Shown: positions 8,200-41,735, numbered from the stretch's first letter. The stretch: 48,184 bases of DNA from an uncultured archaeon (GCA_964587725.1 CAZPLO010000009.1:1-48184), one strand, 5' to 3'. The notes: generated by a model from the letters alone, not told the origin. A program made the numbers and translations.

Positions 8200-8251
8200 G
8201 AACCTTTTAACAAAAGGTTCACGAAATTGTGCGGGGGTGCTGTCGCACCCC
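8200..8251. repeat. Palindromic modules GAACCTTTT-AAC-AAAAGGTTC and GGGGTGC-TGTC-GCACCCC
   Basis: The first module recurs at 39145-39165, with a variant at 32543-32561. Confidence 0.75.
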
Positions 8252-8265
8252 ACGGGGAACTAGGA

Positions 8266-9360
8266 ATGGGAAACACATTCGGTAACGTCTTCCGGCTTAC
8301 GACGTGGGGTGAAAGCCACGGCCCCGCCGTCGGCTGCGTTCTAGACGGCTGCCCCACCGGCCTTGAACTCGGTGCCGACGACGTTCAACGTCAGCTGGAC
8401 CGCCGCCGGCCAGGCCAGAGTCAGGTGACCACGTCGCGCGGCGAGGCGGACGAGGTTGAATTGTTGTCTGGCGTGTTCGAGGGTCGGACGCTGGGCACGC
8501 CAATCAGCATGCTGGTCAGAAACCTCGACAAAGACTCCAGCAAATACCGTGAGATAATTCATAAGCCCCGGCCGGGCCACGCCGATTTGACGTGGCGGAT
8601 GAAGTACGGGCACGTGGACTGGCGCGGCGGAGGCCGCAGCAGCGCCCGGGAGACCGTGGGCAGGGTCGCGGGCGGCGCAGTCGCCTTGAAACTGCTGAAC
8701 CGCTTCAACGTGCAGGTGGTGGGGTACACGAAACAGATTGGCTCCGTGAAGTCGGAGGAGACACTGGATGCTTCGATGAAGGGTGTGTCGGATTTGATTG
8801 AAAGCAACCCCGTCCGCGCCTTGGATGTGGAACAAGCGAAGGCGATGGAGGATGAGGTGCGGGAAGCCAAACGGCAGGGTGACTCCGTCGGCGGCGTCGT
8901 GGAGTGCGTGGCGTTGAACGTTCCGCCGGGCATGGGGGAGCCGGTGTTCGGTAAACTCACCGCGGAACTCGCTGCGGCGGTCGCGTCCATACCCGGGTGC
9001 CGGGGCGTGGAGTTCGGCATGGGCTTCCAGTCGTCTGGGATGCGGGGCAGCGAGGTCAACGACGAATTCACGTTCCAGAACGGCGTTGTTAAGACCCGTA
9101 CCAACCGGTGCGGCGGAATACAGGGCGGCATATCCAACGGCATGCCCGTCGTCCTCCGGGCGGCGTTCAAACCCACCGCGTCCATGGGAAAACGGCAGCG
9201 GACCGTCGATTTGAACTTGAAGAAGGATTCTTACCTGAAGGTTGAGGGCCGCCACGACCCGTGCATCGCCCCCCGCGCCGTTCCCGTGGTGGAGGCGATG
9301 GTCTCCCTCGTCCTGGCGGACCACATGCTCATGTCAGGCGCCATACCGCGCAGGCTCTGA
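8266..9360 (+). CDS. aroC: Chorismate synthase
   Basis: MGNTFG, GESHG, RRRPG, PRPGHAD, GGGRSSARET, KPTAS, GRHDPC. Start placed at ATG 8266. Confidence 0.97.
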   Translation: MGNTFGNVFRLTTWGESHGPAVGCVLDGCPTGLELGADDVQRQLDRRRPGQSQVTTSRGEADEVELLSGVFEGRTLGTPISMLVRNLDKDSSKYREIIHKPRPGHADLTWRMKYGHVDWRGGGRSSARETVGRVAGGAVALKLLNRFNVQVVGYTKQIGSVKSEETLDASMKGVSDLIESNPVRALDVEQAKAMEDEVREAKRQGDSVGGVVECVALNVPPGMGEPVFGKLTAELAAAVASIPGCRGVEFGMGFQSSGMRGSEVNDEFTFQNGVVKTRTNRCGGIQGGISNGMPVVLRAAFKPTASMGKRQRTVDLNLKKDSYLKVEGRHDPCIAPRAVPVVEAMVSLVLADHMLMSGAIPRRL

Positions 9361-9416
9361 ACGGTTTCCCCGCGGAAACCAGAACCGTTTTTACGTTTCC
9401 ATGCCATATCCTCTAC

Positions 9417-9614
9417 ATGACCACCAAGACTAAAGCCAAGGTTTTCAAACCAGACGGCCCGGCAGGCCCCGAGGAGACGCTGCCGCTGAAGAAAGTCATG
9501 GAAAGGCGTTCCGAGGAGAAGGAACACGACCCGTCTGTTGAGATGCCGCCGAGGAACCCTGTCGACAACTTCAGGACCAGGGCGAAAAACAACGGGAAAC
9601 TGGATTTGAAGTGA
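9417..9614 (+). CDS. Hypothetical 65-aa protein
   Basis: ATG about 24 nt after a TTTTTA box. Its stop overlaps the next GTG start. Confidence 0.55.
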   Translation: MTTKTKAKVFKPDGPAGPEETLPLKKVMERRSEEKEHDPSVEMPPRNPVDNFRTRAKNNGKLDLK

Positions 9615-9814
9615 GCGAATCTGATTCTAGCCTGCATGTGAAGGAGCGGGAGAAGAAGGCGTTGGAGAGGATGCGTGACGCCGCCGACGGCATAAGGGAG
9701 GCCGCCGACCAGGTGAGGGAGAAGTACTCCGGATTCGACGACGAACTGGACCAGGTTTCGGAGAAGGCGGAGAAGGTGAAGCAGCGGGCGGAGGAGAAAA
9801 TCAGGGAAGACTGA
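9611..9814 (+). CDS. Hypothetical 67-aa charged helical/coiled-coil protein
   Basis: GTGA overlap with the upstream ORF, typical codon usage, heptad-like charged sequence. Confidence 0.6.
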   Translation: MSESDSSLHVKEREKKALERMRDAADGIREAADQVREKYSGFDDELDQVSEKAEKVKQRAEEKIRED

Positions 9815-10724
9815 AGCACTCCTTCAGCATGTTCAGGCAGTCGTCTTCGTCCGTTGCGTTGAACACGTCGTATCCTTCTGGCGTTTCACCGCCTTTGTCG
9901 TTGACCGCCGCATTCACCTCCACGCCGAAGTTACCGCGTATCTCATCCAGCAGCCGCAGCTGCATGCCCAAATCCGCTTCCGGGTCTATGATGAACAAAA
10001 CCGTGTCTGCTAGGTATTTCAGCGCCAGCACGGCCTGCTTCTCCACGGTGTTCCGGTCCTCCATCGGGCGGTCCAGCAGCCCCGGGGAGTCGATTATCTG
10101 GTACTCCGTGTACTTCACCCTCCTGTATCCTACGAGTATGTCTGTGGTGGTGAACGGATAGGACGCTATCTTCACCTTCGACCCGGTGAGTGTGCGGACG
10201 AACGTGCTCTTGCCGGCGTTCGGCTGCCCAGCCACCACCAGCGTGGGCTCCTCCTTGAGGACGGGGAAAGACAACAGCACCCCCTTAACCTCAATCAGAT
10301 ACTTCAAATCGCCGTCCACCCTTTTCACGAACGAGCCAGCCCGGCCCATGAACGATTTGCTGTGGCCGGTTTCTTTCGTGGTCTTCAGCTTCCTCAATGT
10401 CTTGTTCTTCAGCGACTTAACACGGTCCCTGCACCACTTCACGGCCCCCAGGCTTTTCTTGTACCGGTCCCTCTTAACCCTCAGGTCGAGGAGGCTCTGG
10501 TGGAACTCCGACAACTCCTCGTAGCTTGGGAAGTACTTCACAACGGCGTTCAACTCACCCTCCATTATGGCCGCCATCCTCTCCACCCTCCTTATTTCGC
10601 CCGTCAACTCCTTCCCCGGCTTCTTCCGGCCCATCGCCCGCGCCCTTTTGGCTTCTCCGGCGCCGGCCTTGAACGCCTTGTCCATGAGGTCGTCGGCGGT
10701 GGGCACGTACGGCAGCTTAAACAT
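9801..10724 (-). CDS. NOG1-family GTP-binding protein
   Basis: N-terminal helical NOG1 domain (PTADDLMDKAF), GQPNAGKST, YPFTT, DSPGLLDRP...RN. Confidence 0.9.
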   Translation of the reverse strand: MFKLPYVPTADDLMDKAFKAGAGEAKRARAMGRKKPGKELTGEIRRVERMAAIMEGELNAVVKYFPSYEELSEFHQSLLDLRVKRDRYKKSLGAVKWCRDRVKSLKNKTLRKLKTTKETGHSKSFMGRAGSFVKRVDGDLKYLIEVKGVLLSFPVLKEEPTLVVAGQPNAGKSTFVRTLTGSKVKIASYPFTTTDILVGYRRVKYTEYQIIDSPGLLDRPMEDRNTVEKQAVLALKYLADTVLFIIDPEADLGMQLRLLDEIRGNFGVEVNAAVNDKGGETPEGYDVFNATDEDDCLNMLKECFSLP

Positions 10725-10762
10725 AGTATATATTATAGTCTATGTGAGTATTATGTAAGGAA

Positions 10763-11122
10763 ATGAGTCAGTCCACTGTTAAGATAAAGCACCTGGGTTT
10801 GTTTTCGACCGGAAAGTTCATGGCGGTGTTCACGCTGATACTCAACCTCGTGCTGTTGGGCGTCGGCGCCGCAACCTTCATAGTGTACATTGTGTTTGCG
10901 CTGCTGGCTGGGCTGTTGAGCGGCAGCTACGACGTGCTGGCGGGGTCGCTGGTGGTCGGCGGAGTAAGCCTGGTGACGTTCCTCGTCTCCGCTGCCGTTG
11001 GCTTGATTGCATCCGTCATCGTAGGCTTTTTCGCGGGCATGATTGTCGCGTTCGCATTCAACGTTGTAGTGAAGTTGTCGGGCGGGCTGGCGTTCGACGC
11101 CGACGTAGAGAGTAGAGGCTGA
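10763..11122 (+). CDS. Small membrane protein (DUF3566-like)
   Basis: Two to three TM segments, with 'KIKHLGLFSTGK' and 'FNVVVKLSGGL' termini. Confidence 0.7.
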   Translation: MSQSTVKIKHLGLFSTGKFMAVFTLILNLVLLGVGAATFIVYIVFALLAGLLSGSYDVLAGSLVVGGVSLVTFLVSAAVGLIASVIVGFFAGMIVAFAFNVVVKLSGGLAFDADVESRG

Positions 11123-12198
11123 TGGTTTCACTGGCTTTCATAGGCGACTGCCACCTCGGATACAGGCACCGGTTCAGGACCCAGCGTCTCAGAGACTACG
11201 TGAAATCCTTCGAAGAAGCTGTTAGGAAGGCGTTGAACATGGACCCGGACGCGGTGGTGTTCACCGGAGACCTCGTCCACCACAGCCGCCCCGACCCGGT
11301 GAGCATGCGCACCGTCCTGAAGAAGCTGATTGAGGTCGCGGAATCCTGTCCGGTCATAGTATGCATCGGCAACCACGAGATAGAAGGCCATTTGGGAACA
11401 ACATATACGCCGCTGTACAGTGACGTCCACGAAAACATACACGTGCTGAGCTCTGAGAGCCCGCACACGGTGCTGAAAATAGGGAGGAAGAACATCGGGT
11501 TCCACGGGTTCGAGTACACCCGCAGCCGGGAGCGCGCGGAAGACATGCTCCGCAGCGTGTCAGCCAACCTGGAAGGCGACGTCAACATACTCTGCATACA
11601 CCAGGCTGTTGAACGGTACCTGAACCCGCACGAAATTTCACTGTCCGCCCTCCGTGAGGTGGCGCCGTCGTACGACCTCATAGTCAGCGGCCACGTCCAC
11701 AGGCACCAGCCCATAGGGGAGGTGTCTGATGTTACGCCCGCGTTCTACTGCGGCAGCACCGAACGCATAAGCTTCAACGAGGCAGGCAACCGCACGGGGT
11801 TCATGTTCTTCGACGGCGACTTCACCAGCCCAAAGTACGTGAAGGTGAACTCCGCCGACATGGCCTGCGTGAAGGAGGATTTCCGGGGCACGCCGGAGGA
11901 GCTGAACAAGAGGCTGCGGGAGGTCATCGAATCCAATCAGGCGCCTCTGCTGAAGGTGGAGGTGTCCGCCGACCTGCAAGGCGACTTGATGGACGTGCGA
12001 CGAGACTGGAGTTCCTTCGAGGAGGGCCGCACCATCCTTGAAGTCAACGTCGTCCCCAGCTCAGAGGAAGCCGACATAACCCTGGAGCGCACCGAACTCA
12101 ACGAAGACCTCATCCGGGAATACTTCGAACGCACGGGCAACAGCAACCAGGAGCTGGTGAACCTGTGCATCGAACTCTACAACAAATACGGTGCCTAG
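11122..12198 (+). CDS. mre11: Mre11/SbcD-family DNA repair exonuclease
   Basis: Metallophosphoesterase motifs DCHLG, GDLVH, GNHE, HQ, GHVH, YCGSTERISFNE. Confidence 0.85.
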   Translation: MVSLAFIGDCHLGYRHRFRTQRLRDYVKSFEEAVRKALNMDPDAVVFTGDLVHHSRPDPVSMRTVLKKLIEVAESCPVIVCIGNHEIEGHLGTTYTPLYSDVHENIHVLSSESPHTVLKIGRKNIGFHGFEYTRSRERAEDMLRSVSANLEGDVNILCIHQAVERYLNPHEISLSALREVAPSYDLIVSGHVHRHQPIGEVSDVTPAFYCGSTERISFNEAGNRTGFMFFDGDFTSPKYVKVNSADMACVKEDFRGTPEELNKRLREVIESNQAPLLKVEVSADLQGDLMDVRRDWSSFEEGRTILEVNVVPSSEEADITLERTELNEDLIREYFERTGNSNQELVNLCIELYNKYGA

Positions 12199-12679
12199 GA
12201 TGCAGCGGACGAGGCAGGGCGAATCTCCCTCCTACTACACGGTATTGGAGGGGCCTCCCGCAACCCCTTGCATGACCCACCCCCATGAAGATATCGACGA
12301 CGCATTAATCAACGCGAGGGAGAAGATGCGGCTCCTGCGCAAGGCGGTCGGCGACGTCTCCGAACCCGTGATGTTGGTGGGCCCCACCGACCCCATCCGT
12401 CTCCGCCGGCCGGCAATGCGGTAGAGGGCGTCCCCGACGACTCCGTAACACTAGCCTCCTCGGATTTGTTCTTCACCCCGGAGCTGGTTCCCAACCACCG
12501 CCTCCGCGACTTCATGGGGGGGGATGAAACGGGTCATCCGTCCCGGCGGGCACCTGGGCATCGGCGGCCTGCTTGAGGAAGCATACGGCGACATCAGCCA
12601 GATAATGGAGGTGGGCAGGATGGAGCCGGTAAGCCGACACAGTGTTTTGACCTTATACTGGTCCGCCCGGAAAAGGTAA
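12191..12679 (+). pseudogene. Frameshifted paralog of the downstream SAM-methyltransferase-like gene
   Basis: Three consecutive reading frames give '...YYTVLEGP...', 'VPDDSVTLASSDLFF...LRDFMG' and 'MKRVIRPGGHLGIGG...ARKR*'. The second shift lies in a G8 run at 12516-12523. Confidence 0.6.
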
Positions 12680-12729
12680 CATCAGGGAAACCATGGGGGT
12701 ATTAGCTTTGCTCTTCCTATTACTATTCC

Positions 12730-13482: not shown

Positions 13483-14141
13483 TGTCTTTCAACAACCGGT
13501 TCGACGACCTGGTGGGCGGACTGCAGGAGGGTGTGGTGACGCAGTTCTACGGGCCGCCGGCGTCGGGGAAAACTAATCTAGCGTTGATAGCGGCCACTCA
13601 GGCGTTGGGCAGAGGCAAAGTGGTATATGTGGACCCGGAGGGCGGGTTCAGCGTGGAGCGTTTGAAGCAGATAGCAGGAAACAGGTTCGACGAGGTGTTG
13701 AGCAACATAGTGCTGCTGTCCCCCACGACATTCGAGGAGCAGCGGGTGGCTGTGTCGAAGATAGAGGATGTTGTGTCGTCGATGAAGGTGTCGCTGGTGA
13801 TAGTGGACAGCATAGCCATGCTCTACCGGATGGAGGAGGACAAGGACGTCCGCATGCTCGGCAGGATGCTCGCGCAGCTGTTGCGCATAGCCAGGAAATA
13901 CGACATATCCGTGATGCTCACCAACCAGGTGTACAGCGAATTCGACACCAACATAATACGGCCGATAGGCGGCCAAATCACGGAGTACTTCACAAAAAAC
14001 ATAGTGGAACTGTGCAGGCGGGAGGACGGCACCAGATACGCCGTCTTGAGGAGACACCAGAGCCAGCCGGCGGGATTGAGCCTCGACTTCACCATAACAT
14101 CCGCCGGCGTAGAGTCGACAAGGGAAATGTATAAAGTTTAA
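13479..14141 (+). CDS. radB: DNA repair and recombination protein RadB
   Basis: RecA core only (~220 aa) with YGPPASGKTN, LVIVDS, TNQVY, and a basic RRH patch near the C-terminus. Confidence 0.9.
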   Translation: MMSFNNRFDDLVGGLQEGVVTQFYGPPASGKTNLALIAATQALGRGKVVYVDPEGGFSVERLKQIAGNRFDEVLSNIVLLSPTTFEEQRVAVSKIEDVVSSMKVSLVIVDSIAMLYRMEEDKDVRMLGRMLAQLLRIARKYDISVMLTNQVYSEFDTNIIRPIGGQITEYFTKNIVELCRREDGTRYAVLRRHQSQPAGLSLDFTITSAGVESTREMYKV

Positions 14142-17047: not shown

Positions 17048-17057
17048 CGGAATATAT

Positions 17058-30931: not shown

Positions 30932-32284
30932 ATGAGCATCTACCGCGCCTACGACATCAGAGGGATATACGGCACTGAAATAACGGAGGAGACCGCATAC
31001 GACATCGGCAGGGCGTTCGGCTCCACCCTAGAAGGCTCCGTCGCCGTGGGCATGGACGTCAGAGAAAGCTCCCCCACACTTTCGAAGTGCCTGATAGACG
31101 GGTTGAAGTCCACTGGCCTTCACGTAATCGACGTCGGCGTGGTGCCCACGCCGGTCCTATACTATGCAGTCCACTCCCTCAGGACCAACGGCGGCGTCAT
31201 GCTCACAGCCTCCCACAACCCGCCGGAATACAACGGCTTCAAATTGGTGCGGGAGGGGGGTATGACCCTCTACGGGCCTGAGATACAGGCCATACGGGCG
31301 GCGGTAGAGGAGAAAACATTCAGGGACGGCGAAGGCAGTTCGGAGACCCGCGACATCACCCCCGAATACATAAAATACGTTAAGGAACGCATCAACGTCG
31401 CCGGAAAACCCAAGGTCGTATTGGACTGCGCCAACGGCACCGCAGGACTCGTCGCCCCGCGACTGTTTCGTGAAATAGGATGTGAGGTGGTGGAACTCTA
31501 CTCGGAACCGGACGGTTCCTTCCCCAACCACCCCGCCGACCCCACAGTCGACGATAACCTAACCGAACTCATATCGGCGGTGAAGTCCTCCGGCGCAGAC
31601 ATGGGGTTCGCATTCGACGGCGACTCGGACCGCGCGGGCTTCGTAACCGAAAAAGGCGGCATAGTAAGGGGCGACACCGCCCTCGCATTGTTCAGCCGGG
31701 GAATACTGAAGCAACACCCTGGCGCCTCAGTGATATTCGAGGTGAAATGCAGCATGGCGGTGGCTGAAGACGTTGAAGCCCACGGAGGCAAGCCGATAAT
31801 GTACCGTACCGGACACAGCTTCATCAAAAAGAAAATCAAGGAGGAGCAGGCGCTGATTGCAGGCGAGATGAGCGGCCACTTCTTCTTCGCAGACGACTAC
31901 CCGGGGTACGACGACGGAATATACGCGTCGGCGAGGATGACCCAGCTGATATCACGGTCCGGTAAAACCTTTTCAGAGCTCTCCGACACCGTGCCCCACT
32001 ACCAATCCACCCCAGAAATCAGGGTGGCCGTCCCCGAGGAGGAGAAGTTCCAGCTGGTCGAGGACGTGAAACAGGAATTCCAGGGCATGGACGGCGTCGA
32101 GGTGATTACGGTCGACGGCGTCCGCGTTCAAACAGGCGACAGCTGGGGCCTCATCCGCGCATCCAACACCTCCCCAAAAATAATACTCCGCTTCGAAGGC
32201 AAAACCCCCGAGAAACTGGAGGAAATGAAGGCCCTTTTCAGGCCGGTGTTCGACAGACACCCAGCACTCAAAAACCAAATATAA
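30932..32284 (+). CDS. Phosphomannomutase/phosphoglucomutase
   Basis: AYDIRG, TASHNP, DGDSDR, GEMSGH, RASNT. Confidence 0.96.
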   Translation: MSIYRAYDIRGIYGTEITEETAYDIGRAFGSTLEGSVAVGMDVRESSPTLSKCLIDGLKSTGLHVIDVGVVPTPVLYYAVHSLRTNGGVMLTASHNPPEYNGFKLVREGGMTLYGPEIQAIRAAVEEKTFRDGEGSSETRDITPEYIKYVKERINVAGKPKVVLDCANGTAGLVAPRLFREIGCEVVELYSEPDGSFPNHPADPTVDDNLTELISAVKSSGADMGFAFDGDSDRAGFVTEKGGIVRGDTALALFSRGILKQHPGASVIFEVKCSMAVAEDVEAHGGKPIMYRTGHSFIKKKIKEEQALIAGEMSGHFFFADDYPGYDDGIYASARMTQLISRSGKTFSELSDTVPHYQSTPEIRVAVPEEEKFQLVEDVKQEFQGMDGVEVITVDGVRVQTGDSWGLIRASNTSPKIILRFEGKTPEKLEEMKALFRPVFDRHPALKNQI

Positions 32285-32298
32285 CCCCTGCCCGACAA

Positions 32299-32630
32299 TG
32301 TCATACACGTGATGACACCAAACCGCCGAGCCCCTGGGCTGTGACGACGCTTATGAGTGCTGAAACGGTCACGCGAAGTAGCCTTCGGCTACTAGCGTCC
32401 CAAGACGCAAAGCGTCTTACGGACGCCCCGTTTACAAGCGGAGCGAATGGGGGGGTGGTATTACGACCCCCCATGCACTTCCCTTTTTTATGTGGCGGAC
32501 GCTGTGCATCCGACCCGTGTCCGGGCTCTGCTAGGCCACATAAAACTTTTTCTAAAAGTTTCGTGTGCGAAAAGAAAGAAACTCTGCCATCGGAGATGGT
32601 GCAGTCACCCGGCCCACACTAGCCCACCTG
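32299..32630. repeat. About 330-bp intergenic array of nested hairpins (REP/MITE-like cassette or structured RNA)
   Basis: At least eight inverted repeats, several shared with the tRNA-Ser flank (GACGC-AAA-GCGTC, AAACTTTT-N3-AAAAGTTT). Confidence 0.6.
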
Positions 32631-32667
32631 CGCCTTTTTCTTTTATCCCTTCCATATATCCTATGTG

Positions 32668-33657
32668 ATGGATGATAAACCCAGGAAGTTCGTGCTCATG
32701 GAGGATGAGATGCTTCTGAGGGAGATTCAACCCCATTACCTAGCATTCTACGACATGTTCCTGGTGTGGGCGTGGGTCATATTGTTGAGCGTGTTTTTCA
32801 TCAGCTTCGGGGAGGAGGTGAGCGAGTTCCTCGGCAACCCCATGCTGTTTTTCACCGAAACAATGGCCGACTACACATCCCCCAGCGACGCCGCCCTGGC
32901 TTCCAGGATTCCCCTGGTGTCCAACAGCATGGAGTGGATGAACGACTTCATAACCCCAGTGAACGATTTCATGCGCTCCTACACGCCTGTGGGGTTGTGG
33001 GTCAGCCTGCTGGTTTTCAGCAGCATACCCGTTTCTGTCATGAAGATTGCGTGGAAGTGGATTGCCATCATGATCGGGGTCGGAGTAGCAAGCCTCGCAT
33101 TGACCATCGCGTTGGAGCTGCCGGCGGAGAGCGCATACTACTTCGGCATAATGTTCTCGGTGTTCGGCATAGCCGGGGTTGAACTCTACAGGCGAGCCCA
33201 CACATTCTACATCACCGACCGGCGAATAGTCACGGAGGTGTCGTTTATAGACCATAAACGCAACGAGCTCACCTACGACAAAATAAACAACCTGGTGTTG
33301 GAGCAGAACCTGCTGGGGAGAATATTCGACTTCGGCACCCTCATACCCGTCACCGCGTCCGGCTTGGGGATGGGCAGCGACTTCTCAGCTGTAACAATAG
33401 GGGTGGCCGGCCAGATACAGGGGGGGCCGTTCGTCGGCGGCGCGGTCACTGGCGGCAGGACGGTGCAGACGCCGAGGGTGAGGAGCCCGTACGGAGTCTT
33501 CGGGGTGTCGGGGCCTGAGAAGGTCCAGCAGATGCTCACCCAACACATACACGCCCACGTCGAAGCCCCCTATTTGAAGAAGATGACGGAGCAGCTGGAC
33601 ACAATGTCCAAGAACATGAGGGAAGGCAAGGACTCCGACGGCACCAACGACTGGTGA
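32668..33657 (+). CDS. Membrane protein with bacterial PH (bPH_2) domain
   Basis: TM helices followed by 'FYITDRRIV...YDKINNLVLEQNLLGRIFDFGTL'. Confidence 0.8.
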   Translation: MDDKPRKFVLMEDEMLLREIQPHYLAFYDMFLVWAWVILLSVFFISFGEEVSEFLGNPMLFFTETMADYTSPSDAALASRIPLVSNSMEWMNDFITPVNDFMRSYTPVGLWVSLLVFSSIPVSVMKIAWKWIAIMIGVGVASLALTIALELPAESAYYFGIMFSVFGIAGVELYRRAHTFYITDRRIVTEVSFIDHKRNELTYDKINNLVLEQNLLGRIFDFGTLIPVTASGLGMGSDFSAVTIGVAGQIQGGPFVGGAVTGGRTVQTPRVRSPYGVFGVSGPEKVQQMLTQHIHAHVEAPYLKKMTEQLDTMSKNMREGKDSDGTNDW

Positions 33658-33748
33658 CCAAAATTCAACATAATTTTTATATAATTTAAACTTTTTTTAA
33701 ACTATTTTTAAAAAAGAATTATTTTATTCGGTTCATCTCATATCTAAC

Positions 33749-34174
33749 GTGGGCTTGCTGTTTGAAACCCGGGAGTCACCGGAGGGCTTGGTCATACTCA
33801 ACAGGAACCTGTGGGGTTACTGGTGGCTGGAGAAGGTCCTCCGCCCGGAGAGGGTTTCCCCGACGGCGTGTCTGGCCGCATCCATTGTGTTGCTGGCTGT
33901 GCTGACCCTGCCGGGAATGGTGACGTTGTTGGTGATATCCGGGCTGCTGGACGGCCTCATGCTGCTGATGTTCGTGTCGGCGGTGGCCGCATTCATACTG
34001 TCGTCCCACTACGGCGTGGCCGCACGCCTCATCGAGGCTGAACGCAGCGGACTGAACATGCGTTTCCACTACTTCACCCCGTCCCTGTTCGCCGGAGAAT
34101 ACGAGGAGGTTACGGTGGGCAGGCGTCTGGCCCCGTTCTGGTTCAGCGCCTACAAGATAGTCATCGAGAAATAA
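33749..34174 (+). CDS. Hypothetical membrane protein
   Basis: Two TM segments. Preceded by an AT-rich promoter-like spacer (33658-33748). Confidence 0.65.
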   Translation: MGLLFETRESPEGLVILNRNLWGYWWLEKVLRPERVSPTACLAASIVLLAVLTLPGMVTLLVISGLLDGLMLLMFVSAVAAFILSSHYGVAARLIEAERSGLNMRFHYFTPSLFAGEYEEVTVGRRLAPFWFSAYKIVIEK

Positions 34175-35887
34175 CTATTTCGTGTAGTAGTATTCGCCGG
34201 CGCTCTTCTGCTCGCGGTCTTTGACGCTGCCGGGTTTGTTGGCCCGAGGCCGTCCGGTGTCGGGGTCCCGGCGGAAGGTCACGTCCATCTCCCTGAGGAA
34301 ACGGTTCATGCCGTCTTTCATGGGGAGCGGTTCGTTGGCCCTACCGGTCTTGCCGGACTCGCCCTCGAACACCAGCAGCTCGTCCGACAGGTAATCTATC
34401 AGCAGTATGTCGTGTTCCACCACTATCACCGACGCCTTGTTGTCGTAGGCGAATCCGTGCAGGTATTTGGCCAACGCCAGCCGTTCCTCCACGTCCAGGT
34501 AAGCGGAGGGCTCGTCGAGCATGTATATCTCAGCCTCCCTCGACAGGCAATCTGCGATGGCAACCCGCTGCAGTTCGCCGCCGCTCAACTCCGTCAATTT
34601 CTTGTCCAGCAGGTGGGTGAGGCGGAACCTCTGCACCAGGTCGCCTTTAATCTTCAAACCCATCACCGGGTCTTCGGTGGGGTGTATGTACTGGGGTTTA
34701 TACGATACTCTGACGCCGAGGTCTACCTCCTTGCCGTCTGGTTTCTCCTCGCCCGCGAGCATCTTAACGAACGTTGTTTTTCCGGTGGCGTTGGGCCCCA
34801 ACACCCCGAGTATGGACGGGCTCTTCACACCCCCCGCGTCTGCATGTAGGCTGAAGCTCTCGTACGTCTTCCCCATCTCCGGATACTCCAAAAGCGTTTT
34901 CCTCTCCTTCTCCACCGTCGGAGGCCGGACGTCGAATTTGATTTCATCCCGGAACCGCATGTTTTCGCTGCGGAGGAAACCGCCCAAGTACTCGTTGATG
35001 CCAACCCTGACGCCCATGATGTTGCTGACTATCCCGTACGCCCCCACCTCCCCGAATATGACGTGCACGCGGTCGCTCAAGTAATCCAACACGACGAGGT
35101 CGTGTTCCACCACCAACACGGGCTTGCCCTCCAGGGAGCGTATGGTCTTCGCCGCGTTCAAACGCTCCCCCACGTCCAGGTAGCTGGAGGGCTCGTCTAT
35201 CAAGTACACGTCCGCTTCTTTGCCGAGGCACGCCGCCAACGCAATCTTCTGCAGCTCCCCCCCGCTAACTGACTTGATGTCCTTGTCCAACGCGTTCTTG
35301 AGGTTCAGTTTCTCTGTTATTTCATCGAACACGCCGCGTTCATCGCCGGACTCCAGTATGTCCCCAACCCTGCCCTCAACCACCCGAGGTATCGACTCCA
35401 CATACTGTGGCTTATACACTGCCTTTATGCCGCCTTCACTGAGCCTCTTCAAATAGTCTTGGAGTTCATGTCCTTTGTATCGTTCCAGTACCTCATCCCA
35501 TCCCGCGCCGGCTCCGAGGTTCGGCTGTATTTCGCCGGACAGTATCCTCAACGCAGTGGACTTTCCTATGCCGTTGCTTCCGACGATGCCGGCCACGCCT
35601 TCGCGGGGGGTGGGGAGGTTGAACAGGCGGAAGCCGTTGACGCCGTGCTGGTGCACCGGCTCGGTCAGCGCCTCCGGCAGGTTGATTATCTTGATGGCGT
35701 CGTACGGGCACTTCCTCACGCATATGCCGCATCCAGTGCACAGTGTCTCGCTTATCACCGGCTTCCCCGTATCAGGGTCCTTGGTGATGCACTCGCCTCC
35801 GGTCTTGTTCACAGGGCACACTCTGACACACAGGAAGTTACAGTCTTTCGGCTTGCACCTGCTTTTGTCGTGTACCGCAATCCTCAT
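34175..35887 (-). CDS. Ribosome recycling ATPase ABCE1 (RLI)
   Basis: N-terminal 2x[4Fe-4S] domain (CKPKDC..CVRVCP, CTGCGICVRKCP), two ABC domains with SGGELQ, C-terminal RPRANK...YYY. Confidence 0.97.
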   Translation of the reverse strand: MRIAVHDKSRCKPKDCNFLCVRVCPVNKTGGECITKDPDTGKPVISETLCTGCGICVRKCPYDAIKIINLPEALTEPVHQHGVNGFRLFNLPTPREGVAGIVGSNGIGKSTALRILSGEIQPNLGAGAGWDEVLERYKGHELQDYLKRLSEGGIKAVYKPQYVESIPRVVEGRVGDILESGDERGVFDEITEKLNLKNALDKDIKSVSGGELQKIALAACLGKEADVYLIDEPSSYLDVGERLNAAKTIRSLEGKPVLVVEHDLVVLDYLSDRVHVIFGEVGAYGIVSNIMGVRVGINEYLGGFLRSENMRFRDEIKFDVRPPTVEKERKTLLEYPEMGKTYESFSLHADAGGVKSPSILGVLGPNATGKTTFVKMLAGEEKPDGKEVDLGVRVSYKPQYIHPTEDPVMGLKIKGDLVQRFRLTHLLDKKLTELSGGELQRVAIADCLSREAEIYMLDEPSAYLDVEERLALAKYLHGFAYDNKASVIVVEHDILLIDYLSDELLVFEGESGKTGRANEPLPMKDGMNRFLREMDVTFRRDPDTGRPRANKPGSVKDREQKSAGEYYYTK

Positions 35888-36531
35888 CTTCTCTCCATAA
35901 TCCCCCGTATCTCCCCGAGGTTTGATATGGTCGGGTAGTCTCTGGCGTCCTTGGAGCCTGCTCTGTCCACCAAAACAGCCTTCAGTCCCGCGTTCAACGC
36001 CCCTTCGACGTCTGCTTCAACGCTGTCCCCTACCATCCACGCGTCGGCGGCTTTCACGTCCAGTTCCTCTAAGGCGGCCTCGTATATAAGCGGGTTAGGC
36101 TTCACCACGCCTATGTCGCATGAGAATAATACGGCGTCGAAGTAGTCTTTCAGGTATTTTTCTCTGGCGTAGTCACATCCGCTCCCGTCCACGTTCGATA
36201 TGAGACCGAGCCTGTAGTCTTCGCGGAGGCCCGCCAACACCGCCTCCGCCCCCGGAAAGTATTCCGCATCGTCCAGGCGGCTTCTCCACACCTCCGCAGC
36301 CTCCGAAACCTCGCCGCCGCATGCGACGTCGTTTTCCCTGCACAGTCCATCCAGCATCTCCTCCAGACTGTATCCACGGTCCACGAACACGGTTTTTTCC
36401 ATCGCGGATACGACCTCATGGTAGCCTGCCTTCCCCTCCAAATCAAGCAGCTTTATCATCCTCTCCACCCGCTCCCTGGTCGGACAATACAATAGCGTGT
36501 TCCACAGGTCGAACAGTACAGCTTCAGCCAT
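35884..36531 (-). CDS. HAD-family hydrolase
   Basis: FDLWNTL, ISN, KPNP, VGDSVEADV. Confidence 0.9.
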   Translation of the reverse strand: MAEAVLFDLWNTLLYCPTRERVERMIKLLDLEGKAGYHEVVSAMEKTVFVDRGYSLEEMLDGLCRENDVACGGEVSEAAEVWRSRLDDAEYFPGAEAVLAGLREDYRLGLISNVDGSGCDYAREKYLKDYFDAVLFSCDIGVVKPNPLIYEAALEELDVKAADAWMVGDSVEADVEGALNAGLKAVLVDRAGSKDARDYPTISNLGEIRGIMERR

Positions 36532-36532
36532 C

Positions 36533-37642
36533 TTAAATCATGTTTTTTATGAGTTCAGCCAGCCCCTTCTCGTCCACGGGCCGTGGATTGCTTCTGGTGG
36601 ACCCGCTCAAACCCACCTCCACCATCTCCGGTATATGCTCTTCCTTAACCCCTAATTCGCCCAGGGTTGCAGGCACCCCCAGAATCTCATTAATCTCCTC
36701 TACCTTTTCAACAAGCTCCTCAGGCGTCTGGAGGCCGCAGTGCCTAGCCAACCCCGCATAGTCCGTGCACTCCATGTTGAAACGCATGACATATGGGAGT
36801 ACTGTTCCGCAGGCTAGTCCGTGGGAAATGCCCGTCACCCTCCACAGTGAATATGAGAGGCCGTGAGCCACTCCGGCGCCGGCGTGGGTTATCCCGTAAC
36901 CAGCCATCAAACCCGCCAGCATCATCCGCTCCCTCGCCTCCATGTTTCCCCCGTCCCGGTAGGCTGTGGTCAGGTTCTCCAGTACAACTTTCGCCGCCTC
37001 CATGCACAGCACGTCCCCTATGGGCTGGTGGCGGTTAGATGTATGGGCTTCTATGGCGTGGGTGAGGGCGTCGAGCCCGGATGACGCCGTCACACTGGTG
37101 GGCATGCTAACAGTCAACTCCGGGTCATCCAATGCAACCGTGGGGTACATGAATCTGCTGCGGAAGCTTTTTTTCACCCTATTACCCACGTCCGACAGCA
37201 CTGACACCTCCGTTACCTCACTGCCTGTGCCAGAGGTTGTGGGCACCGCTACCAGGGGCGGTCCGGGTTCACCGACGCCACACCCCCTCAGGTACTCTAT
37301 TGATGTTCCGCCGTTGGCTGACACAACCGACATGGCCTTGGCGGCGTCCATGGGGCTGCCGCCCCCCAAGGCTATGATGGCGTCGGAGCCTCTCACAACT
37401 TCTGCGCCCCGGTCCACCGTATCAACGGAGGGGTCGTTTTCCACTTCGTCGAAGACTGTCACCTCCTGTTTCTCAAGCATGCTGGTAACCCGGTCCAGTA
37501 TTCCCGTCTTTCGCATGGCTGTTTTTCCAGTAACCACCACCACATTGCATGCACCCAACTCTTTCATAACCGACGGCAGTTCATCCACCACACCCCTTCC
37601 GAAACGCACTTCCGTTGGCGTGTGGTAGGTGAATTCCATCAC
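36533..37642 (-). CDS. Iron-containing alcohol dehydrogenase family protein
   Basis: GGGSPMDAAK, PTTSGTGSE, DALTHAIE, HGL...HG. Confidence 0.93.
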   Translation of the reverse strand: MMEFTYHTPTEVRFGRGVVDELPSVMKELGACNVVVVTGKTAMRKTGILDRVTSMLEKQEVTVFDEVENDPSVDTVDRGAEVVRGSDAIIALGGGSPMDAAKAMSVVSANGGTSIEYLRGCGVGEPGPPLVAVPTTSGTGSEVTEVSVLSDVGNRVKKSFRSRFMYPTVALDDPELTVSMPTSVTASSGLDALTHAIEAHTSNRHQPIGDVLCMEAAKVVLENLTTAYRDGGNMEARERMMLAGLMAGYGITHAGAGVAHGLSYSLWRVTGISHGLACGTVLPYVMRFNMECTDYAGLARHCGLQTPEELVEKVEEINEILGVPATLGELGVKEEHIPEMVEVGLSGSTRSNPRPVDEKGLAELIKNMI

Positions 37643-38283
37643 AGGCCCTCCAGCAGCCTAAGGTTCACGTCCTCCATGGAGTCGACCACCGCGTCAGCTC
37701 CGCCGAGGTCTTGGCCGTGGGTGTTGGGGCTTCTCACCGCCACAACCTTCATGCCCGCCGCCTTAGCAGCCTCTATCCCCGCCTCCGCGTCCTCCAACAC
37801 CACACACCCGGACGGTTCCAGACCCAACCGTTCAGCAGCCAACAGGAAAGGCTCCGGGTCGGGTTTGCCCTGCACGCAGCAGTCTCCGGACAGTATCAAA
37901 TCGAATCCCATAACCAACCCCACCTCCTCTAGACTAACGTTGACCCGGTCCATGGGGCTCGAAGAAACCACAGCTTTCTTCACGCCGGCGTCGTCCAGCT
38001 CGCCCAGCAACTCGAGCACCCCCGGCACCGGCTTCAACCGGCCCCTAATCAGTTTCGCGAACAACCGGTTCTTCTTAGCCACCAGTCCGTCGACATCCAC
38101 TTCCAAGCCTCTTGCGTCGACGGCGGCCTGATAGTTCTCTCTCGTCCGCCTGCCGAACACGTTCTTCCTCTCCTCCTCGGTCTGACGTATCCCCACATCA
38201 GCCAAAACTTTGTCTGAAGCCTCCCGGCTGAACGGCTCCGAATCAATCAACACCCCGTCGAGGTCGAACAACACAGCATCCAT
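37639..38283 (-). CDS. HAD-family phosphatase (beta-phosphoglucomutase-like)
   Basis: FDLDGVLIDSE, VSSS, KPDPE, LEDA..GIEAAKAAGM. Confidence 0.9.
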   Translation of the reverse strand: MDAVLFDLDGVLIDSEPFSREASDKVLADVGIRQTEEERKNVFGRRTRENYQAAVDARGLEVDVDGLVAKKNRLFAKLIRGRLKPVPGVLELLGELDDAGVKKAVVSSSPMDRVNVSLEEVGLVMGFDLILSGDCCVQGKPDPEPFLLAAERLGLEPSGCVVLEDAEAGIEAAKAAGMKVVAVRSPNTHGQDLGGADAVVDSMEDVNLRLLEGL

Positions 38284-38285
38284 GG

Positions 38286-38912
38286 CTAAAAATATAGTCT
38301 CCCCACTTTTTTAACGGCCTCCGCCTTCGCAGGCGGCCCGTGGCCCGGGTAAAAGGTTTCCACGCCTTCCGCGTCAACGAACTCCTCCAGCCTCCTCAAA
38401 GACTCCTCCAAGTCATCCCAGCTGCCCCCCTGGAAATCCGTCCTCCCCACGCCTGTGGCGAACACTGTGTCGCCGGTGAACAGACTCCCTGAACCCCGTT
38501 CATACAGGCATATGCTGCCGGGCGTGTGCCCCGGCGTATGCAGCACCTCCAACGCCACACCCCCCAAGTCTACGACGTCCCCGTCTCTGAGGCGGCGGTC
38601 CACCCGGTGCCTGACGGGCTCGGCACCGAACAATGAGGCGAGCTGCAGGCCGTCAACACCCGTCTCCAACGCCCCGGCGTCGCATTCACCGGCTGAAACC
38701 TCAGGAGAAAACATTTTCAGAATTCCAGGGTTGGCTCCGACGTGGTCGAAGTGGCAGTGAGTATTTATTAAGACGTCAATACCTATATTATCCTCACCAA
38801 CGTGGTTCAGAACCCGCGAGGCATCCAGGCCGGGGTCGATGACGCACGTTCTCTCGCATGAGACGACGTACGCGTTAGACTCCATGGAGGTGCTGAGCAG
38901 GCTGTGAATCAC
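38286..38912 (-). CDS. MBL-fold metallo-hydrolase (glyoxalase II-like)
   Basis: THCHFDH, HTPGHTPGS, FTGD, PGHG. Confidence 0.92.
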   Translation of the reverse strand: MIHSLLSTSMESNAYVVSCERTCVIDPGLDASRVLNHVGEDNIGIDVLINTHCHFDHVGANPGILKMFSPEVSAGECDAGALETGVDGLQLASLFGAEPVRHRVDRRLRDGDVVDLGGVALEVLHTPGHTPGSICLYERGSGSLFTGDTVFATGVGRTDFQGGSWDDLEESLRRLEEFVDAEGVETFYPGHGPPAKAEAVKKVGRLYF

Positions 38913-39038
38913 GGATAAATATATAGGCTAAGTCTATATATGGTATTCACGACCCGTCCCCCGTTTGAGGGGATTTAGTCGGGCTCACAGAAGCCCTTGA
39001 CGAGACTAATGACGGAAAACGGGCTTACCTTACACTAT

Positions 39039-39145
39039 GCCGAGGTGGCGGAGTCCGGTTCAACGCGCGGGCCTTGAAATCATATACTTGACTTGAAAGC
39101 CCGTGTCCCCCCGGGGACACTTGAGTTCAAATCTCAACCTCGGCG
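39039..39145 (+). tRNA. tRNA-Ser(UGA) with a 19-nt intron at 37/38 (39079-39097)
   Basis: Acceptor GCCGAGG/CCTCGGC plus G73, anticodon stem CGGGC/GCCCG, loop CT-TGA-A, long variable arm, T arm TTGAG-TTCAAAT-CTCAA. Confidence 0.9.
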
Positions 39146-39215
39146 AACCTTTTACAAAAAGGTTCATGTGGTCGAGCAGAGCTCGGACAGGTGTCGGACG
39201 CAAAGCGTCCGACAC
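39145..39215. repeat. Palindromic module cluster immediately 3' of tRNA-Ser
   Basis: GAACCTTTT-ACA-AAAAGGTTC, CGAGC-AGA-GCTCG, and GTGTCGGACGC-AAA-GCGTCCGACAC (11-bp arms). Confidence 0.8.
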
Positions 39216-39232
39216 ATCAAAAGAATTTGCAT

Positions 39233-39310
39233 TTGAGTTCAAACGACGGCTTCGCAGAAGCCGGCGCGCCGAAAGCCGAATGGCTTTCGAGCGTCTCAAC
39301 CTCGGCGAAC
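39233..39310 (+). repeat. Duplicated tRNA-Ser 3' end (T arm plus acceptor 3' strand) interrupted by a 50-nt hairpin insert in the T-loop
   Basis: TTGAGTTCAAA (39233-39243) + insert (39244-39293) + TCTCAACCTCGGCGAAC (39294-39310) matches 39121-39148 exactly once the insert is removed. Confidence 0.85.
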
Positions 39311-39318
39311 GACATAAG

Positions 39319-39870
39319 ATGGCGGATAAGAAGGACAAGCAGGATTCCGGGAAGGAGAAACCCAAGGGTAAGGGTAAGAAGAAGCCCGAGTCCAAGGAGA
39401 AGCAGTCAGGCGAAGGCAAGGGCGTCCAGCAGCTGGTCCGTCTCTCGGGTGTGGTAGTCGACGGAAGCCTGACCCTGCCGAAGGCGCTGATGAAGGTTAA
39501 GGGTGTCGGCCCGCGTGTGGCAGACGCGTTGATACCCCAGCTTGGAATCCCCGCGGACGAGCGCGTCGGAAACCTGAGCGAGGAGCAGATAGCCGACGTG
39601 GAGGGTAAGCTGGAGAAAATCCACGAACTCCTGCCCGAGTGGATGCTGAACAGGAGGAAGGACGTTGACACGGGCATGAACCTCCACAAGTTCGGACCCG
39701 AACTGGACATGCAGAAGCGGGAGGACATCAACCGGGAGAAGAAGATAAAATCCTACCGCGGCGTCAGACACAGCCTGAACCTGCCGGTGCGTGGTCAGCG
39801 CACCCGCTCGTCTTTCAGGACCGGCGGCACACTAGGCGTGAGCAGGAAGAAGGTGAAGTCAGGTAAGTAA
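39319..39870 (+). CDS. rps13: 30S ribosomal protein S13 (uS13)
   Basis: KGVGPRVA, PEWMLNRRKD, SYRGVRH..LPVRGQRTRS. ATG at 39319. Confidence 0.96.
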   Translation: MADKKDKQDSGKEKPKGKGKKKPESKEKQSGEGKGVQQLVRLSGVVVDGSLTLPKALMKVKGVGPRVADALIPQLGIPADERVGNLSEEQIADVEGKLEKIHELLPEWMLNRRKDVDTGMNLHKFGPELDMQKREDINREKKIKSYRGVRHSLNLPVRGQRTRSSFRTGGTLGVSRKKVKSGK

Positions 39871-39871
39871 A

Positions 39872-40381
39872 ATGGGCACCCCAGGCAAGCAGCGGAGGAA
39901 GTTCAGCAGGCCCAAGCACCCGTGGAGGATAGAGAGGGTCACGGGGGAGAAGGAAATCCAGTCCAAATACGGCCTCAAAAACAAGCGCGAGATATGGAGG
40001 GCGAGGAGCATGCTGGGGAGGGTGCGCCAGCAGGCGAGGAAACTGCTCCCGTTGACGGACGAGGGCTCGGAGAAGGAGAAGCGTGAATTGATAGCAAAAA
40101 TCAACCGCATGGGCATAAACATCAAGACAGCCGACGACATACTCGGGTTGGGCGTGGAAGACATACTCGACCGGCGCCTGCAGACCGTGGTTTTCAGGCG
40201 CGGCCTGGCAAACACGCCGAGGCAGGCTCGGCAGTTCATAGTACATAACCACGTATACGTGGGAGGCCATAAGGTCAGCGTACCCGGCTACATGGTATTG
40301 GCGCAGGAGGAAGGTACCATCCGGTTGGCTGACGACATAAAGGTGGAGCAAAGTGTCAGAGGACAAGAAGAGTCAATCTGA
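39872..40381 (+). CDS. rps4: 30S ribosomal protein S4 (uS4)
   Basis: [31 protein letters not shown]. Confidence 0.96.
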
Positions 40382-40934
40382 AGAGGAGGGGGTGAAGGCC
40401 CAGGAGGCTGAGCCACAGCCCGAGGAGGCTCCGGAACAGCCTGAGGAATCGGCTGAGCAGTCCGAGAAACCCTCGGAGGATCAGTCCGGGGGGTCGGCTG
40501 AAAAGGAGAAGAAAACCAGAAAACAGCCCGCCGCACCGAAGAAGAGAAAGGAGCTGTGGGGCGTCCTCCACATGTACTCGTCGAAAAACAACACCATATT
40601 GCATGTAACCGACGTGACCGGCGCCGAAACCGTGGCCATACAGTCCGGCGGCCAGATAGTGAGGTCGGACCGTGAGGAGGGTTCACCGTATGCGGCCATG
40701 CAGGCGGCCTCAAACATTGCCTCAGCTATAAAGGAGAAGGGGTTCAGCGGAGTCCACATCAAAGTCCGCGCCCCAGGAGGCCACAACGGCCCCAAATACC
40801 CCGGCAAGGGGGCGCAGGCGGCCATCCGCGCCATATCCCGTTCCGGGGTGAAGATAGGCCGCATAGAAGACGTTACGCCCATACCCCACGACGGCTGCAG
40901 GCCGAAGGGCGGTAAACGGGGGAGGAGGGTATGA
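40353..40934 (+). CDS. rps11: 30S ribosomal protein S11 (uS11) with an acidic N-terminal extension
   Basis: [46 protein letters not shown]. Confidence 0.96.
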
Positions 40935-41545
40935 TGAAGGTAACCAACTTCAAACAGGACGGGGATAGTGTTGAATTCGACGTGGAAGGCGTGAACATTA
41001 AGATGTTGAACGCGTTCCGGAGAACCATCATATCCCGGGTGCCGGTGATGGCGGCGGAGAAGGTGACGGTCTACAACAACTCATCCATATTAAACGACGA
41101 GAACCTAGTGCACAGGATCGGTTTGATGCCGTTGACAACGGACCTGAAAACCTATGTTCCAAGGGGTGAGTGCACGTGCAAGGGGAAGGGCTGCGCCAAG
41201 TGCACGGCCACCATAACCCTGGATGTTTCGGAGGCGGGTTCGGTGTACAGCGGCGACTTCAAAACCACAGACGAGGCCGTGAAGCACGTGTACGAGAAGA
41301 TGCCGTTGGTGAAGCTGATGCCCGGGCAGAAAATCAAGCTGGAGGCGGAGGCCATACTCGGCTACGGCAGCGACCACGTGAAATGGCAGCCGGGGCTGGC
41401 GTCCTACGAAGTCAAAGACAAGGACAAAAAATCATACCATGTGGTGGTGGAGTCGTACGGGCAGTTGCCCGTCGGCGAACTAGTGAAGAAAACCTTCGAG
41501 GTGGTTGACGACAAAATCAAGGAGCTTGAGAAAGCAGTCAAATAA
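40931..41545 (+). CDS. rpoD: DNA-directed RNA polymerase subunit D (Rpo3)
   Basis: NAFRRTI..VP, NSS...[11 protein letters not shown], Cys cluster, HVKWQP. Confidence 0.95.
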
Positions 41546-41549
41546 ACAT

Positions 41550-41735
41550 GCGGGGGTGCCCGAGTCCGGTCAAACATATCCGTCTCACCCCCCTATTTCA
41601 CTTTCAAGTTGAAAGGAGACGATATGGGCCAAAGGGGCACGGTTGAGGATCGCCGAGCAAGCTCGGATTTTTGCTTGCGGGCAAGCAAATGCCGTGTGGC
41701 GCAGGCCTACGCGAGTTCGAACCTCGCCCCCCGCA
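41550..41735 (+). tRNA. tRNA-Leu(GAG) with two introns: D-loop (41574-41632) and anticodon loop (about 41649-41690)
   Basis: Acceptor GCGGGGG/CCCCCGC plus A73, spliced D-loop GAGTCCGGTCAAAGGG, anticodon stem CACGG/CCGTG with TT-GAG-G, T arm GCGAG-TTCGAAC-CTCGC. Lies at the canonical tRNA-Leu position between rpoD and L18e. Confidence 0.85.

Follow-up and report, generated by a model that had tools for sequence, protein, structure and literature searches.

Hairpin modules at genes for tRNAs and other stable RNAs of an uncultured archaeon as possible non-autonomous mobile DNA

The window analyzed here is a whole stretch of 48,184 nucleotides (nt) from an uncultured archaeon (GCA_964587725.1, CAZPLO010000009.1:1-48184) and corresponds to an entire contig, C9, of a 1.56-Mb genome in 48 contigs that is 92% complete and ~57% G+C. 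It holds four loci at which short hairpin-forming modules recur, and these modules, their relatives elsewhere in the genome and their possible mobility are the subject of this work. The source genome is referred to as G000, its same-genus relative as G001, and further related genomes of the order by other G numbers. Locus 1 sits between divergent genes, upstream of a chorismate-synthase-like open reading frame (ORF), locus 2 adjoins a C/D-box small RNA (sRNA) gene, and loci 3 and 4 fall within a conserved block that reads, from ORF translations, tRNA-Ser, rpS13, rpS4, rpS11, RNA polymerase subunit D, tRNA-Leu, rpL18e and rpL13, with the subunit D assignment backed by a language-model look-alike search. 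A related-locus search with rpS13 yielded distant archaea only, and the protein atlas placed the lineage nowhere. The features of all four loci are collected in Table 1.

The tRNA-Leu(GAG) gene of locus 4 goes undetected by both ARAGORN and Rfam. Run without introns, ARAGORN reports no tRNA in the window; with introns allowed it reports 26 in the G000 genome, where the Rfam tRNA model has 21 matches, 20 of them above cut-off. Once positions 41649-41690 and ~41575-41633 are removed, the gene takes on the layout of the uninterrupted G013 and G024 orthologues. The D-loop intron is present in G001, G005, G016, G004, G028 and G012. The 42 nt at 41649-41690, on the other hand, are seen in G000 alone among the nine orthologues read and are absent from same-genus G001, so that on sequence comparison they appear to be a recently gained intron at a canonical position, built of two adjacent hairpins; in G012 this position is taken by an unrelated insert of 19 nt. 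G000 encodes the splicing endonuclease EndA (PF01974 match at C1:163379-163639, 114 bits, within a 176-aa open frame).

Locus 3 is the spacer between tRNA-Ser(UGA) and rpS13. An earlier reading of the stretch made from its sequence alone (the sequence-only reading) had described one locus as lying between tRNA repeats resembling attachment (att) sites, and a 17-nt direct repeat (39132-39148 and 39294-39310) indeed brackets this one, its second copy stopping 8 nt upstream of the rpS13 start codon (39319). Two hairpins lie between the D palindrome (39146-39164) and the displaced T-arm copy of tRNA-Ser, and the tRNA trailer as a whole (39165-39310) has a fold z-score of -5.6, with none of 200 shuffles folding as well. 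In a whole-genome search the twin-hairpin model R1, described below, matches 39247-39293 with E 1.3e-3. The same earlier reading had placed two loci inside tRNA loops; this stands for 41649-41690, which lies in a functional anticodon loop, whereas the T-loop that hosts 39244-39293 is that of a displaced partial copy and not of the working gene. Among the 11 relatives read, the tRNA-Ser–rpS13 spacer is short and plain in G013, G010, G011, G004 and G012; in G001, G016 and G003 it is occupied by other inserts, behind each of which the tRNA 3' end appears a second time; the insert of G002 is longer and terminates in a degenerate tRNA-end copy; G030 has a longer AT-rich spacer without a second copy; and in G023 the downstream neighbor of tRNA-Ser is another tRNA instead of rpS13.

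At locus 2 the proposed hairpin cassette (32299-32630) has to be divided. Its first ~60 nt belong to the unannotated C/D-box sRNA gene (box C 32309-32315, C' 32341-32347, D 32360-32363), which is conserved in G001, G003, G008 and G002, with a near-identical second guide in G001, and which has no match in Rfam; the cassette claim stands for the composite insert that follows (32365-32628). In G001 this insert is absent, and the T-rich leader of the downstream gene begins ~10 nt after the sRNA. The first module of the insert (32364-32448) is 84% identical over 85 nt to C1:97459-97542, and model R1 matches 32372-32423 with E 5e-3 in the whole-genome search. Logan contigs break at this module, a consequence of its repetition in the genome.

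The cassette of locus 1 leads to a further stable RNA. Positions 8198-8232 are 91% identical over 35 nt to C1:97870-97904, in the P3 region of the RNase P RNA gene, where on the minus strand the segment forms the hairpin immediately 5' of the GAGGAA-type conserved core. This RNase P RNA (C1:~97620-97985, minus strand, L020) scores 48.7 bits against an Rfam gathering cut-off of 84 (E 5e-11) and shares a further trait with the tRNA loci, namely a copy of its own 3' end, 17 nt long and placed 186 nt downstream, in the same layout. It also has ~60 extra nt between P1 and P3, and its P3 is a D-type palindrome. Taken together, and judged by comparison with orthologous sites, three of the four hairpin stretches are lineage-specific module insertions at tRNA or other stable-RNA genes, the site of locus 1 not being comparable.

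Table 1. Features of the four hairpin loci of the window (positions counted from the first nucleotide of the stretch)
Locus	Feature	Position	Strand	Basis or remark
1	D cassette: palindrome 8201-8219, short linker, degenerate third arm	8198-8232		Pattern match
1	GC-rich hairpin (7 bp in the stem, 4 nt in the loop) immediately following the cassette	8234-8251	+	Read from sequence
2	C/D-box sRNA gene	32306-32364	+	Box order, 12-nt guide spacing; outside the cassette system
2	Composite insert, ~265 nt, between sRNA and T-rich leader of downstream gene	32365-32628		Comparison with G001
2	Twin-hairpin-like module with GC-AAA-GC hairpin	32364-32448		Paralogue beside RNase P RNA gene
2	Long-stem module	32491-32541		Paralogous arrangement at C1:242235-242315
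2	Variant D palindrome (AACTTTTTCTAAAAGTT)	32544-32560		Only the variant form at locus 2
2	A-rich third arm	32571-32584		Sequence reading
3	tRNA-Ser(UGA) with canonical ~20-nt intron	39039-39145	+	Rfam RF00005, 45.3 bits; ARAGORN with introns
3	D palindrome abutting tRNA-Ser 3' end	39146-39164		Pattern match
3	11-bp hairpin with AAA loop, holding the shared 13-mer	39191-39215	+	Fold
3	Displaced copy, 5' side of tRNA-Ser T-arm	39233-39243	+	Repeat scan
3	Twin hairpin, 50 nt, in the T-loop (59/60) of the displaced copy	39244-39293		Alignment
3	Displaced tRNA-Ser 3' end, 17 nt	39294-39310	+	Direct repeat of 39132-39148
4	tRNA-Leu(GAG) gene with two introns	41550-41735	+	Hand alignment with intron-less G013 and G024 orthologues
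4	Intron 1, D-loop, edges slide ~3 nt	41575-41633	+	Common to six relatives
4	Intron 2, position 37/38, two adjacent hairpins, 42 nt	41649-41690	+	Extra relative to orthologues

Two words tie the loci to one another. The palindrome AACCTTTT..AAAAGGTT occurs at 8201-8219 and 39146-39164, and a 13-mer with a GC-AAA-GC loop at 32404-32416 and 39197-39209, each with two matches in the window against none in 100 shuffles. Locus 4 shares no sequence that we could find with the other loci and has only the two-hairpin architecture in common with them, so that the hairpin vocabulary once ascribed to all four loci shrinks to a palindrome at loci 1 and 3 and to the 13-mer and model R1 at loci 2 and 3, with a variant palindrome at locus 2. 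No window module matches an Rfam family at the gathering cut-off or at E<=5, and no described family corresponding to the modules was found in the literature, a search that did not extend to the intron-family lists in supplements.

The twin hairpin, of ~54 nt, has conserved ends and a conserved GC-rich center with two variable stems between them. In an alignment of six copies from four genomes 95.6% of cells pair and 16 of 24 pairs have changed on both sides, a result equaled by none of 500 shuffles, while slid controls of the same alignment pair at 27-54%. The covariance model finds six places in G000: three displaced T-loops (tRNA-Phe, tRNA-Arg and tRNA-Ser), a tRNA-Ile copy at 37/38, the tRNA-Thr(UGU) intron, and locus 2. 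Matches, counted with both strands summed and in relatives at E<=1e-3, occur in 23 of 31 relatives and range from 0 to 43 per genome (43 in G020, 32 in the one-contig G024). The 19 places read in relatives include T-loop position 59/60 of displaced 3' copies and D-loops of displaced 5' copies, and the element also occurs in the canonical introns of tRNA-Trp and tRNA-Leu(UAA) of relatives, there inside a D cassette. Across tRNAs it is thus found at 37/38 (Ile, Thr), at 59/60 (Ser, Phe, Arg and Gly copies) and in D-loops (Gly and Phe copies). It is further nested in the loop of another module, module F (G028:C21), and in the loop of a hairpin contained in a 120-137-nt repeat (G017:C2), and IS200-type (insertion sequence) tnpA genes of G024 carry it in frame as 54 nt, or 18 codons. 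The interrupted G024 tnpA genes lie at C1:~50000-50500 (L156) and 1305300-1305700 (L153), with further copies within a few hundred bases. In G000, copies of the 120-137-nt repeat that are 95-99% identical lie at C1:119992-120127, C3:91467-91585, C29:147-266 and C40:54-190, several of them at contig ends.

The D cassette consists of a palindrome, with T-runs and A-runs as its arms, and, beyond a short linker, of the A-rich arm in a third copy. The exact pattern ACCTTTT, 1-14 nt, AAAAGGT is present six times in G000 and 95 times in 49 genomes, against 16 for a reversed control, and reaches bursts of 13-14 copies in G021, G028 and G038, where each genome has its own loop variant. Half of the G000 palindromes (3/6) abut a tRNA end or partial copy, one lies in the RNase P RNA and one beside a 12-mer, GTAGTGCCTAAC, treated below; in G028 and G021 together 11 of 25 D loci border on a tRNA gene at its 3' end or its 5' start, or on a displaced 5' fragment, and 2 of 25 border on the 12-mer. 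The canonical intron of tRNA-Phe in G021 consists of a D cassette. We also considered the D palindrome as the usual promoter of the genome and rejected it, as the recurrent promoter-like word of G000 is a different, AT-rich one of the TTTAAA..TTTGAAC type, seen in the window at 5465-5547 and again at many gene starts, and probably the local promoter consensus.

With both families in hand, the possibility that unrelated GC-rich hairpins in non-coding DNA resemble each other by chance is barely credible. Hairpins are frequent in stable-RNA regions, and locus 4, with no sequence in common with the rest, would suit such a view, but the shuffles never yield the shared palindrome or 13-mer, and model matches, covariation and order-wide censuses agree with them; for loci 1 to 3 these same lines of evidence rule chance out. 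Both D palindromes and twin hairpins cluster at genes for tRNAs and other stable RNAs, as a motif census had been expected to reveal, and the same sites differ between related genomes, as at the tRNA-Ser spacer, tRNA-Phe, intron 2 of tRNA-Leu and the locus 2 insert. The hairpin family proposed earlier is thus repeated far above chance, although what repeats is several families, among them the T-run palindrome cassette and the twin hairpin, and not a single one.

On balance we favor the reading that the loci are short non-coding structured modules which act like mobile DNA that is non-autonomous and directed at stable-RNA genes, which include transposing tRNA introns and which are accompanied by target duplication. 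We infer mobility as a process because the modules are repeated, conserve their structure, target loops, nest in one another, swing in copy number and differ in presence at the same sites of close genomes. The repetition, the structural conservation, the location, the duplication and the polymorphism between genomes are observed directly. In such a scheme modules would enter single-stranded loops, namely the D-, anticodon- and T-loops of tRNAs and the loops of other modules, and would also join the exact 3' end of tRNA genes. A module arriving in a working tRNA would persist as an intron, presumably removed by the host splicing endonuclease; alternatively, insertion would be coupled to duplication of the neighboring part of the gene, so that one intact copy stays and a displaced partial copy gathers modules. 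As to the likely order of events, the displaced copies may be parts of the gene that are older, bear introns and gave way to an intron-less segment, or they may be neutral landing sites where modules collect. The idea that host splicing neutralizes the modules agrees with their presence as introns in tRNA-Leu(GAG), tRNA-Thr and tRNA-Ile of G000 and in tRNA-Trp, tRNA-Leu(UAA) and tRNA-Phe of relatives, and with the EndA gene; the splicing itself is predicted from gene structure, and a search for RNA runs containing this DNA listed none.

Partial gene copies are frequent beside tRNA genes. Of 23 tRNA loci, 13 have an exact self-copy, 13 nt or longer, no more than 500 nt away, as compared with 121 of 5000 random 90-nt segments (2.4%), and three of the ten loci that lack one are at contig ends. 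In a direct-repeat scan the partial copies lie 80-210 nt from the tRNA genes, 3'-end copies downstream and 5'-end copies upstream; the 3' repeats start in the T-loop, and by our own reading 5 of 11 stop exactly at the discriminator base, 2 run one base past it and 4 two or three bases past it. The inserts between the repeats are 60-190 nt long, carry no ORF and are assembled from a limited set of modules common to different loci, and the duplications beside D cassettes vary in length from 13 to 56 nt. At tRNA-Phe, G000 and G001 carry different modules. In G012 a complete, intron-less tRNA-Gly(GCC) is followed, after a 22-nt spacer, by a displaced copy of its nt ~12-76, whose D-loop and T-loop both carry twin hairpins. 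A tRNA-Gly arm in module F was set aside as proof of copying between loci, since it pairs equally well with both C-rich acceptor strands. In a protein gene, a 274-aa ORF at C17:25525-25722 (L014, ORF 1867..2691, minus strand) carries a 144-nt unit, in frame and stop-free, made of a 56-nt repeat (one mismatch) and 88 nt of D cassette and hairpin; this ORF has no Pfam family and adjoins an IF2/aIF5B-like gene, named from its translation.

Repeats that span a tRNA from loop to 3' end, or from 5' end to loop, resemble att identity blocks, and the arrangement could therefore be read as a set of integration scars: elements with a tyrosine integrase would have entered tRNA loops, regenerating the tRNA and displacing a partial copy as attL/attR, and later deletions would have left 60-190 nt in which the hairpins are what remains of those elements' arms. 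Under this reading, however, each of the 13 affected tRNA loci requires an integration followed by near-total deletion, the insert sizes are narrow, and different tRNAs hold the same modules. These modules also occur in working introns, in one another and in protein genes, and the RNase P RNA and the C17 ORF have the same architecture. The only candidate integrase in G000 is a 488-aa tyrosine recombinase frame with a zinc-ribbon-like C-terminal tail (C27:12905-15487, L013) beside HATPase_c and DUF4325 (STAS-like) genes; this is probably a small genomic island, and it lies ~1.2 kb downstream of a tRNA that bears a displaced 5' copy, a placement in keeping with integration, though outside the repeat pair. 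The G012 tRNA-Gly, intron-less and followed by a displaced copy with two introns, is likewise what such events could leave, and the model of Sugahara et al. 2012 (PMC3293823) derives both intron gain and a tRNA fragment from integrase-type recombination at tRNA genes. Weighing the two sides, we consider integration scars an unlikely explanation.

Orthologous sites that are empty in many relatives, and same-genus genomes with different modules, count against a third possibility, that the modules are resident signals, vertically inherited and selected. The palindromes would then be bidirectional oligo-T terminators, and the displaced 3' ends minihelices cut by tRNase Z or RNase P to free downstream RNAs such as the rpS13 operon mRNA. 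T-run arms directly after RNA 3' ends, displaced 3' ends that pair with an upstream arm into long hairpins, the tRNA-Ser end copy just before the rpS13 start codon, compensatory stem changes across genera and the palindrome copy that forms the P3 helix region of RNase P RNA all accord with such functions. Further points against it are the swing of 0-43 twin-hairpin matches per genome, the copies nested in other modules and in frame within coding genes, and the canonical intron of tRNA-Phe in G021, inside which a terminator would be harmful. As a full account this reading is improbable; a functional role in termination or processing may nonetheless explain the cross-genus conservation of some arrangements.

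The question of an enzyme was addressed by profile searches of the genome. PF00589 (tyrosine recombinase) has a single match, on C27, and PF01797 (Y1/HUH), PF07282 (TnpB) and PF00078 (reverse transcriptase) have none in this 92%-complete genome, so that the earlier statement that the window encodes no mobilizing enzyme holds for these four families. Movement in trans by an HUH (Y1) transposase, in the manner of repetitive extragenic palindromic (REP) elements and their paired REPIN forms, was the mechanism put forward by the sequence-only reading; G000 would then retain only relics after loss of the enzyme. Among 31 relatives, Y1_Tnp is found in nine (E<=1e-3) and RVT_1 in three, and G020, G024 and G025, each with an intact Y1_Tnp gene, rank first, second and fourth by twin-hairpin count, the third, G017 (67% complete), having none; this association is weak because related genomes are not independent. 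Hairpins that enter single-stranded loops would suit such an enzyme, but G000, G001, G002, G010, G011 and G017 have 6-23 matches and no Y1 gene, and when 11 loci around Y1 genes were searched with the model, matches appeared only at G024 loci and, weakly, at G021, with none near the Y1 genes of G020, G025, G015 and G005. We had considered twin hairpins as the terminal hairpins of IS200/IS605 elements and dropped the idea, since in G024 they interrupt or adjoin tnpA and are not element ends. HUH mobilization is thus distinctly unlikely.

Several observations count against a mobile family, and the enzyme survey supplies the first two of them: Y1_Tnp, TnpB and RVT_1 had no match in G000, and the genome has only one tyrosine recombinase. 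At the places read, the twin hairpin has neither a terminal inverted repeat nor a target-site duplication, and with no short duplication and no parent insertion sequence found, the modules do not match a miniature inverted-repeat transposable element (MITE) either. At locus 1 no flanking duplication was found, and the neighboring genes differ in relatives, so that no site comparison is available there. In the hand model of the bulge-helix-bulge of intron 2 in tRNA-Leu(GAG), the 4-bp central helix has three Watson-Crick pairs and one A.G. The second unit at tRNA-Phe is kept in G000, G002 and G010 with compensatory changes across genera, and module F persists at tRNA-Leu in two families, again with compensatory changes; such cross-genus persistence fits a selected function as well as it fits mobility. 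Finally, the contigs of four metagenome runs, all from a single study and probably of the source sample, contain no indels or joints over 32100-42000 and so give no sign of ongoing movement, a comparison made at contig level, where rare variants are dropped.

Beside the D cassettes stands the 12-mer GTAGTGCCTAAC, of which G000 has 22 copies with unrelated flanks, none of them in the window (e.g. C17:25525, C8:32786 and a cluster at C1:242088-242326); 17 of the 22 lie in long open frames, all three stop-free frames being represented. Of the order's 49 genomes 37 contain it, with up to 71 copies per genome, as against five copies in total for a reversed control, and the word was not found in a literature search. 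D cassettes adjoin it in G000, G021 and G028, with the 12-mer duplicated on either side of the insert. Solitary 12-mers were considered as excision footprints and rejected, as at C8:32786 the orthologues are equal in length and show no insertion.

A more specific variant of the mobile reading can be formulated, in which an undescribed insertion system specific for RNA genes would join cassettes at RNA-processing cuts and duplicate a variable length of target upstream of a fixed junction, with GTAGTGCCTAAC as a landing site. The proposed joining sites would be tRNA position 73/74, where tRNase Z cuts, and the loop positions recognized by the splicing endonuclease. We hold such a system to be rather improbable; were it real, it would imply an RNA-templated or RNA-guided mechanism, or a recombinase outside current family libraries, and it would constitute a direct birth route for archaeal tRNA introns, split genes and permuted genes.

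Further repeats of G000 lie outside the module families. Exact 55-nt repeats at 155-nt spacing (e.g. C1:215153, C4:82229 and C28:4648) were excluded because they flank runs of 100 N, and 100 N plus a 55-nt overlap is a scaffolding artifact; 55-nt overlaps of this kind are common to many G000 contig ends and are artifacts of assembly. A CRISPR array with ~37 copies of a 30-nt repeat is located at C5:44067-46451, and a second repeat type is found at the contig ends of C32 and C34.

How archaeal tRNA introns arrive is still debated, and the abstract of a 2026 preprint on Asgard tRNA genes reports no general arrival route. The present clade offers snapshots of how introns and gene-end duplications may originate: a probably recent canonical intron, one module family found in working introns, in displaced fragments and in other modules, and intron-less genes standing beside intron-bearing copies. 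The inserts also explain why about half of the G000 tRNA genes escape standard finders, which bears on completeness estimates of metagenome-assembled genomes.

REP and REPIN sequences, moved by RAYT (REP-associated tyrosine) transposases, and the miniature elements derived from IS200/IS605 are short, abundant, non-autonomous hairpin repeats with genome-specific variants. The modules described here share these traits, down to sequence variants particular to each genome. They differ in that G000 has no RAYT/Y1 gene, no transposase gene forms the center of their arrangement, and they target RNA-gene loops instead of intergenic space. REP and bacterial interspersed mosaic elements (BIMEs) are many-copy and mostly intergenic; G000 has six twin hairpins and six D palindromes, with more in some relatives, mostly at RNA genes. 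Another parallel is provided by the GC clusters of yeast mitochondria, tiny mobile palindromes that occupy RNA genes and coding regions, sometimes in frame, and have no enzyme of their own; size, targets and lack of an enzyme are alike, while host, sequence and genetic system are unrelated, so that the likeness is one of analogy only.

The attL/attR duplications left by SSV- and pNOB8-type integration, and the Sugahara model, resemble our loci in the regenerated tRNA, in the displaced 5' or 3' fragment that forms a direct repeat, and in the presence of an intron in one copy only. In contrast to SSV- and pNOB8-type integration, the repeats here enclose 60-190 nt without a gene, most tRNA loci are affected, and the genome has a single integrase. 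The nearest precedent for the core idea is the transposition of tRNA introns in Thermoproteales (Fujishima et al. 2010), where, in the account given by the citing articles (PMC4033280, PMC10714607), similar introns in different tRNAs and at different positions imply movement. In both cases related non-coding sequences occur in different tRNAs and positions, and removal by the host endonuclease is presumed. Unlike those introns, as there described, the modules of the present lineage, a different one, have a defined twin-hairpin architecture, come with duplication of an end of the target gene, and extend beyond tRNA introns to displaced gene copies, other modules, the flanks of the RNase P RNA gene and protein genes.

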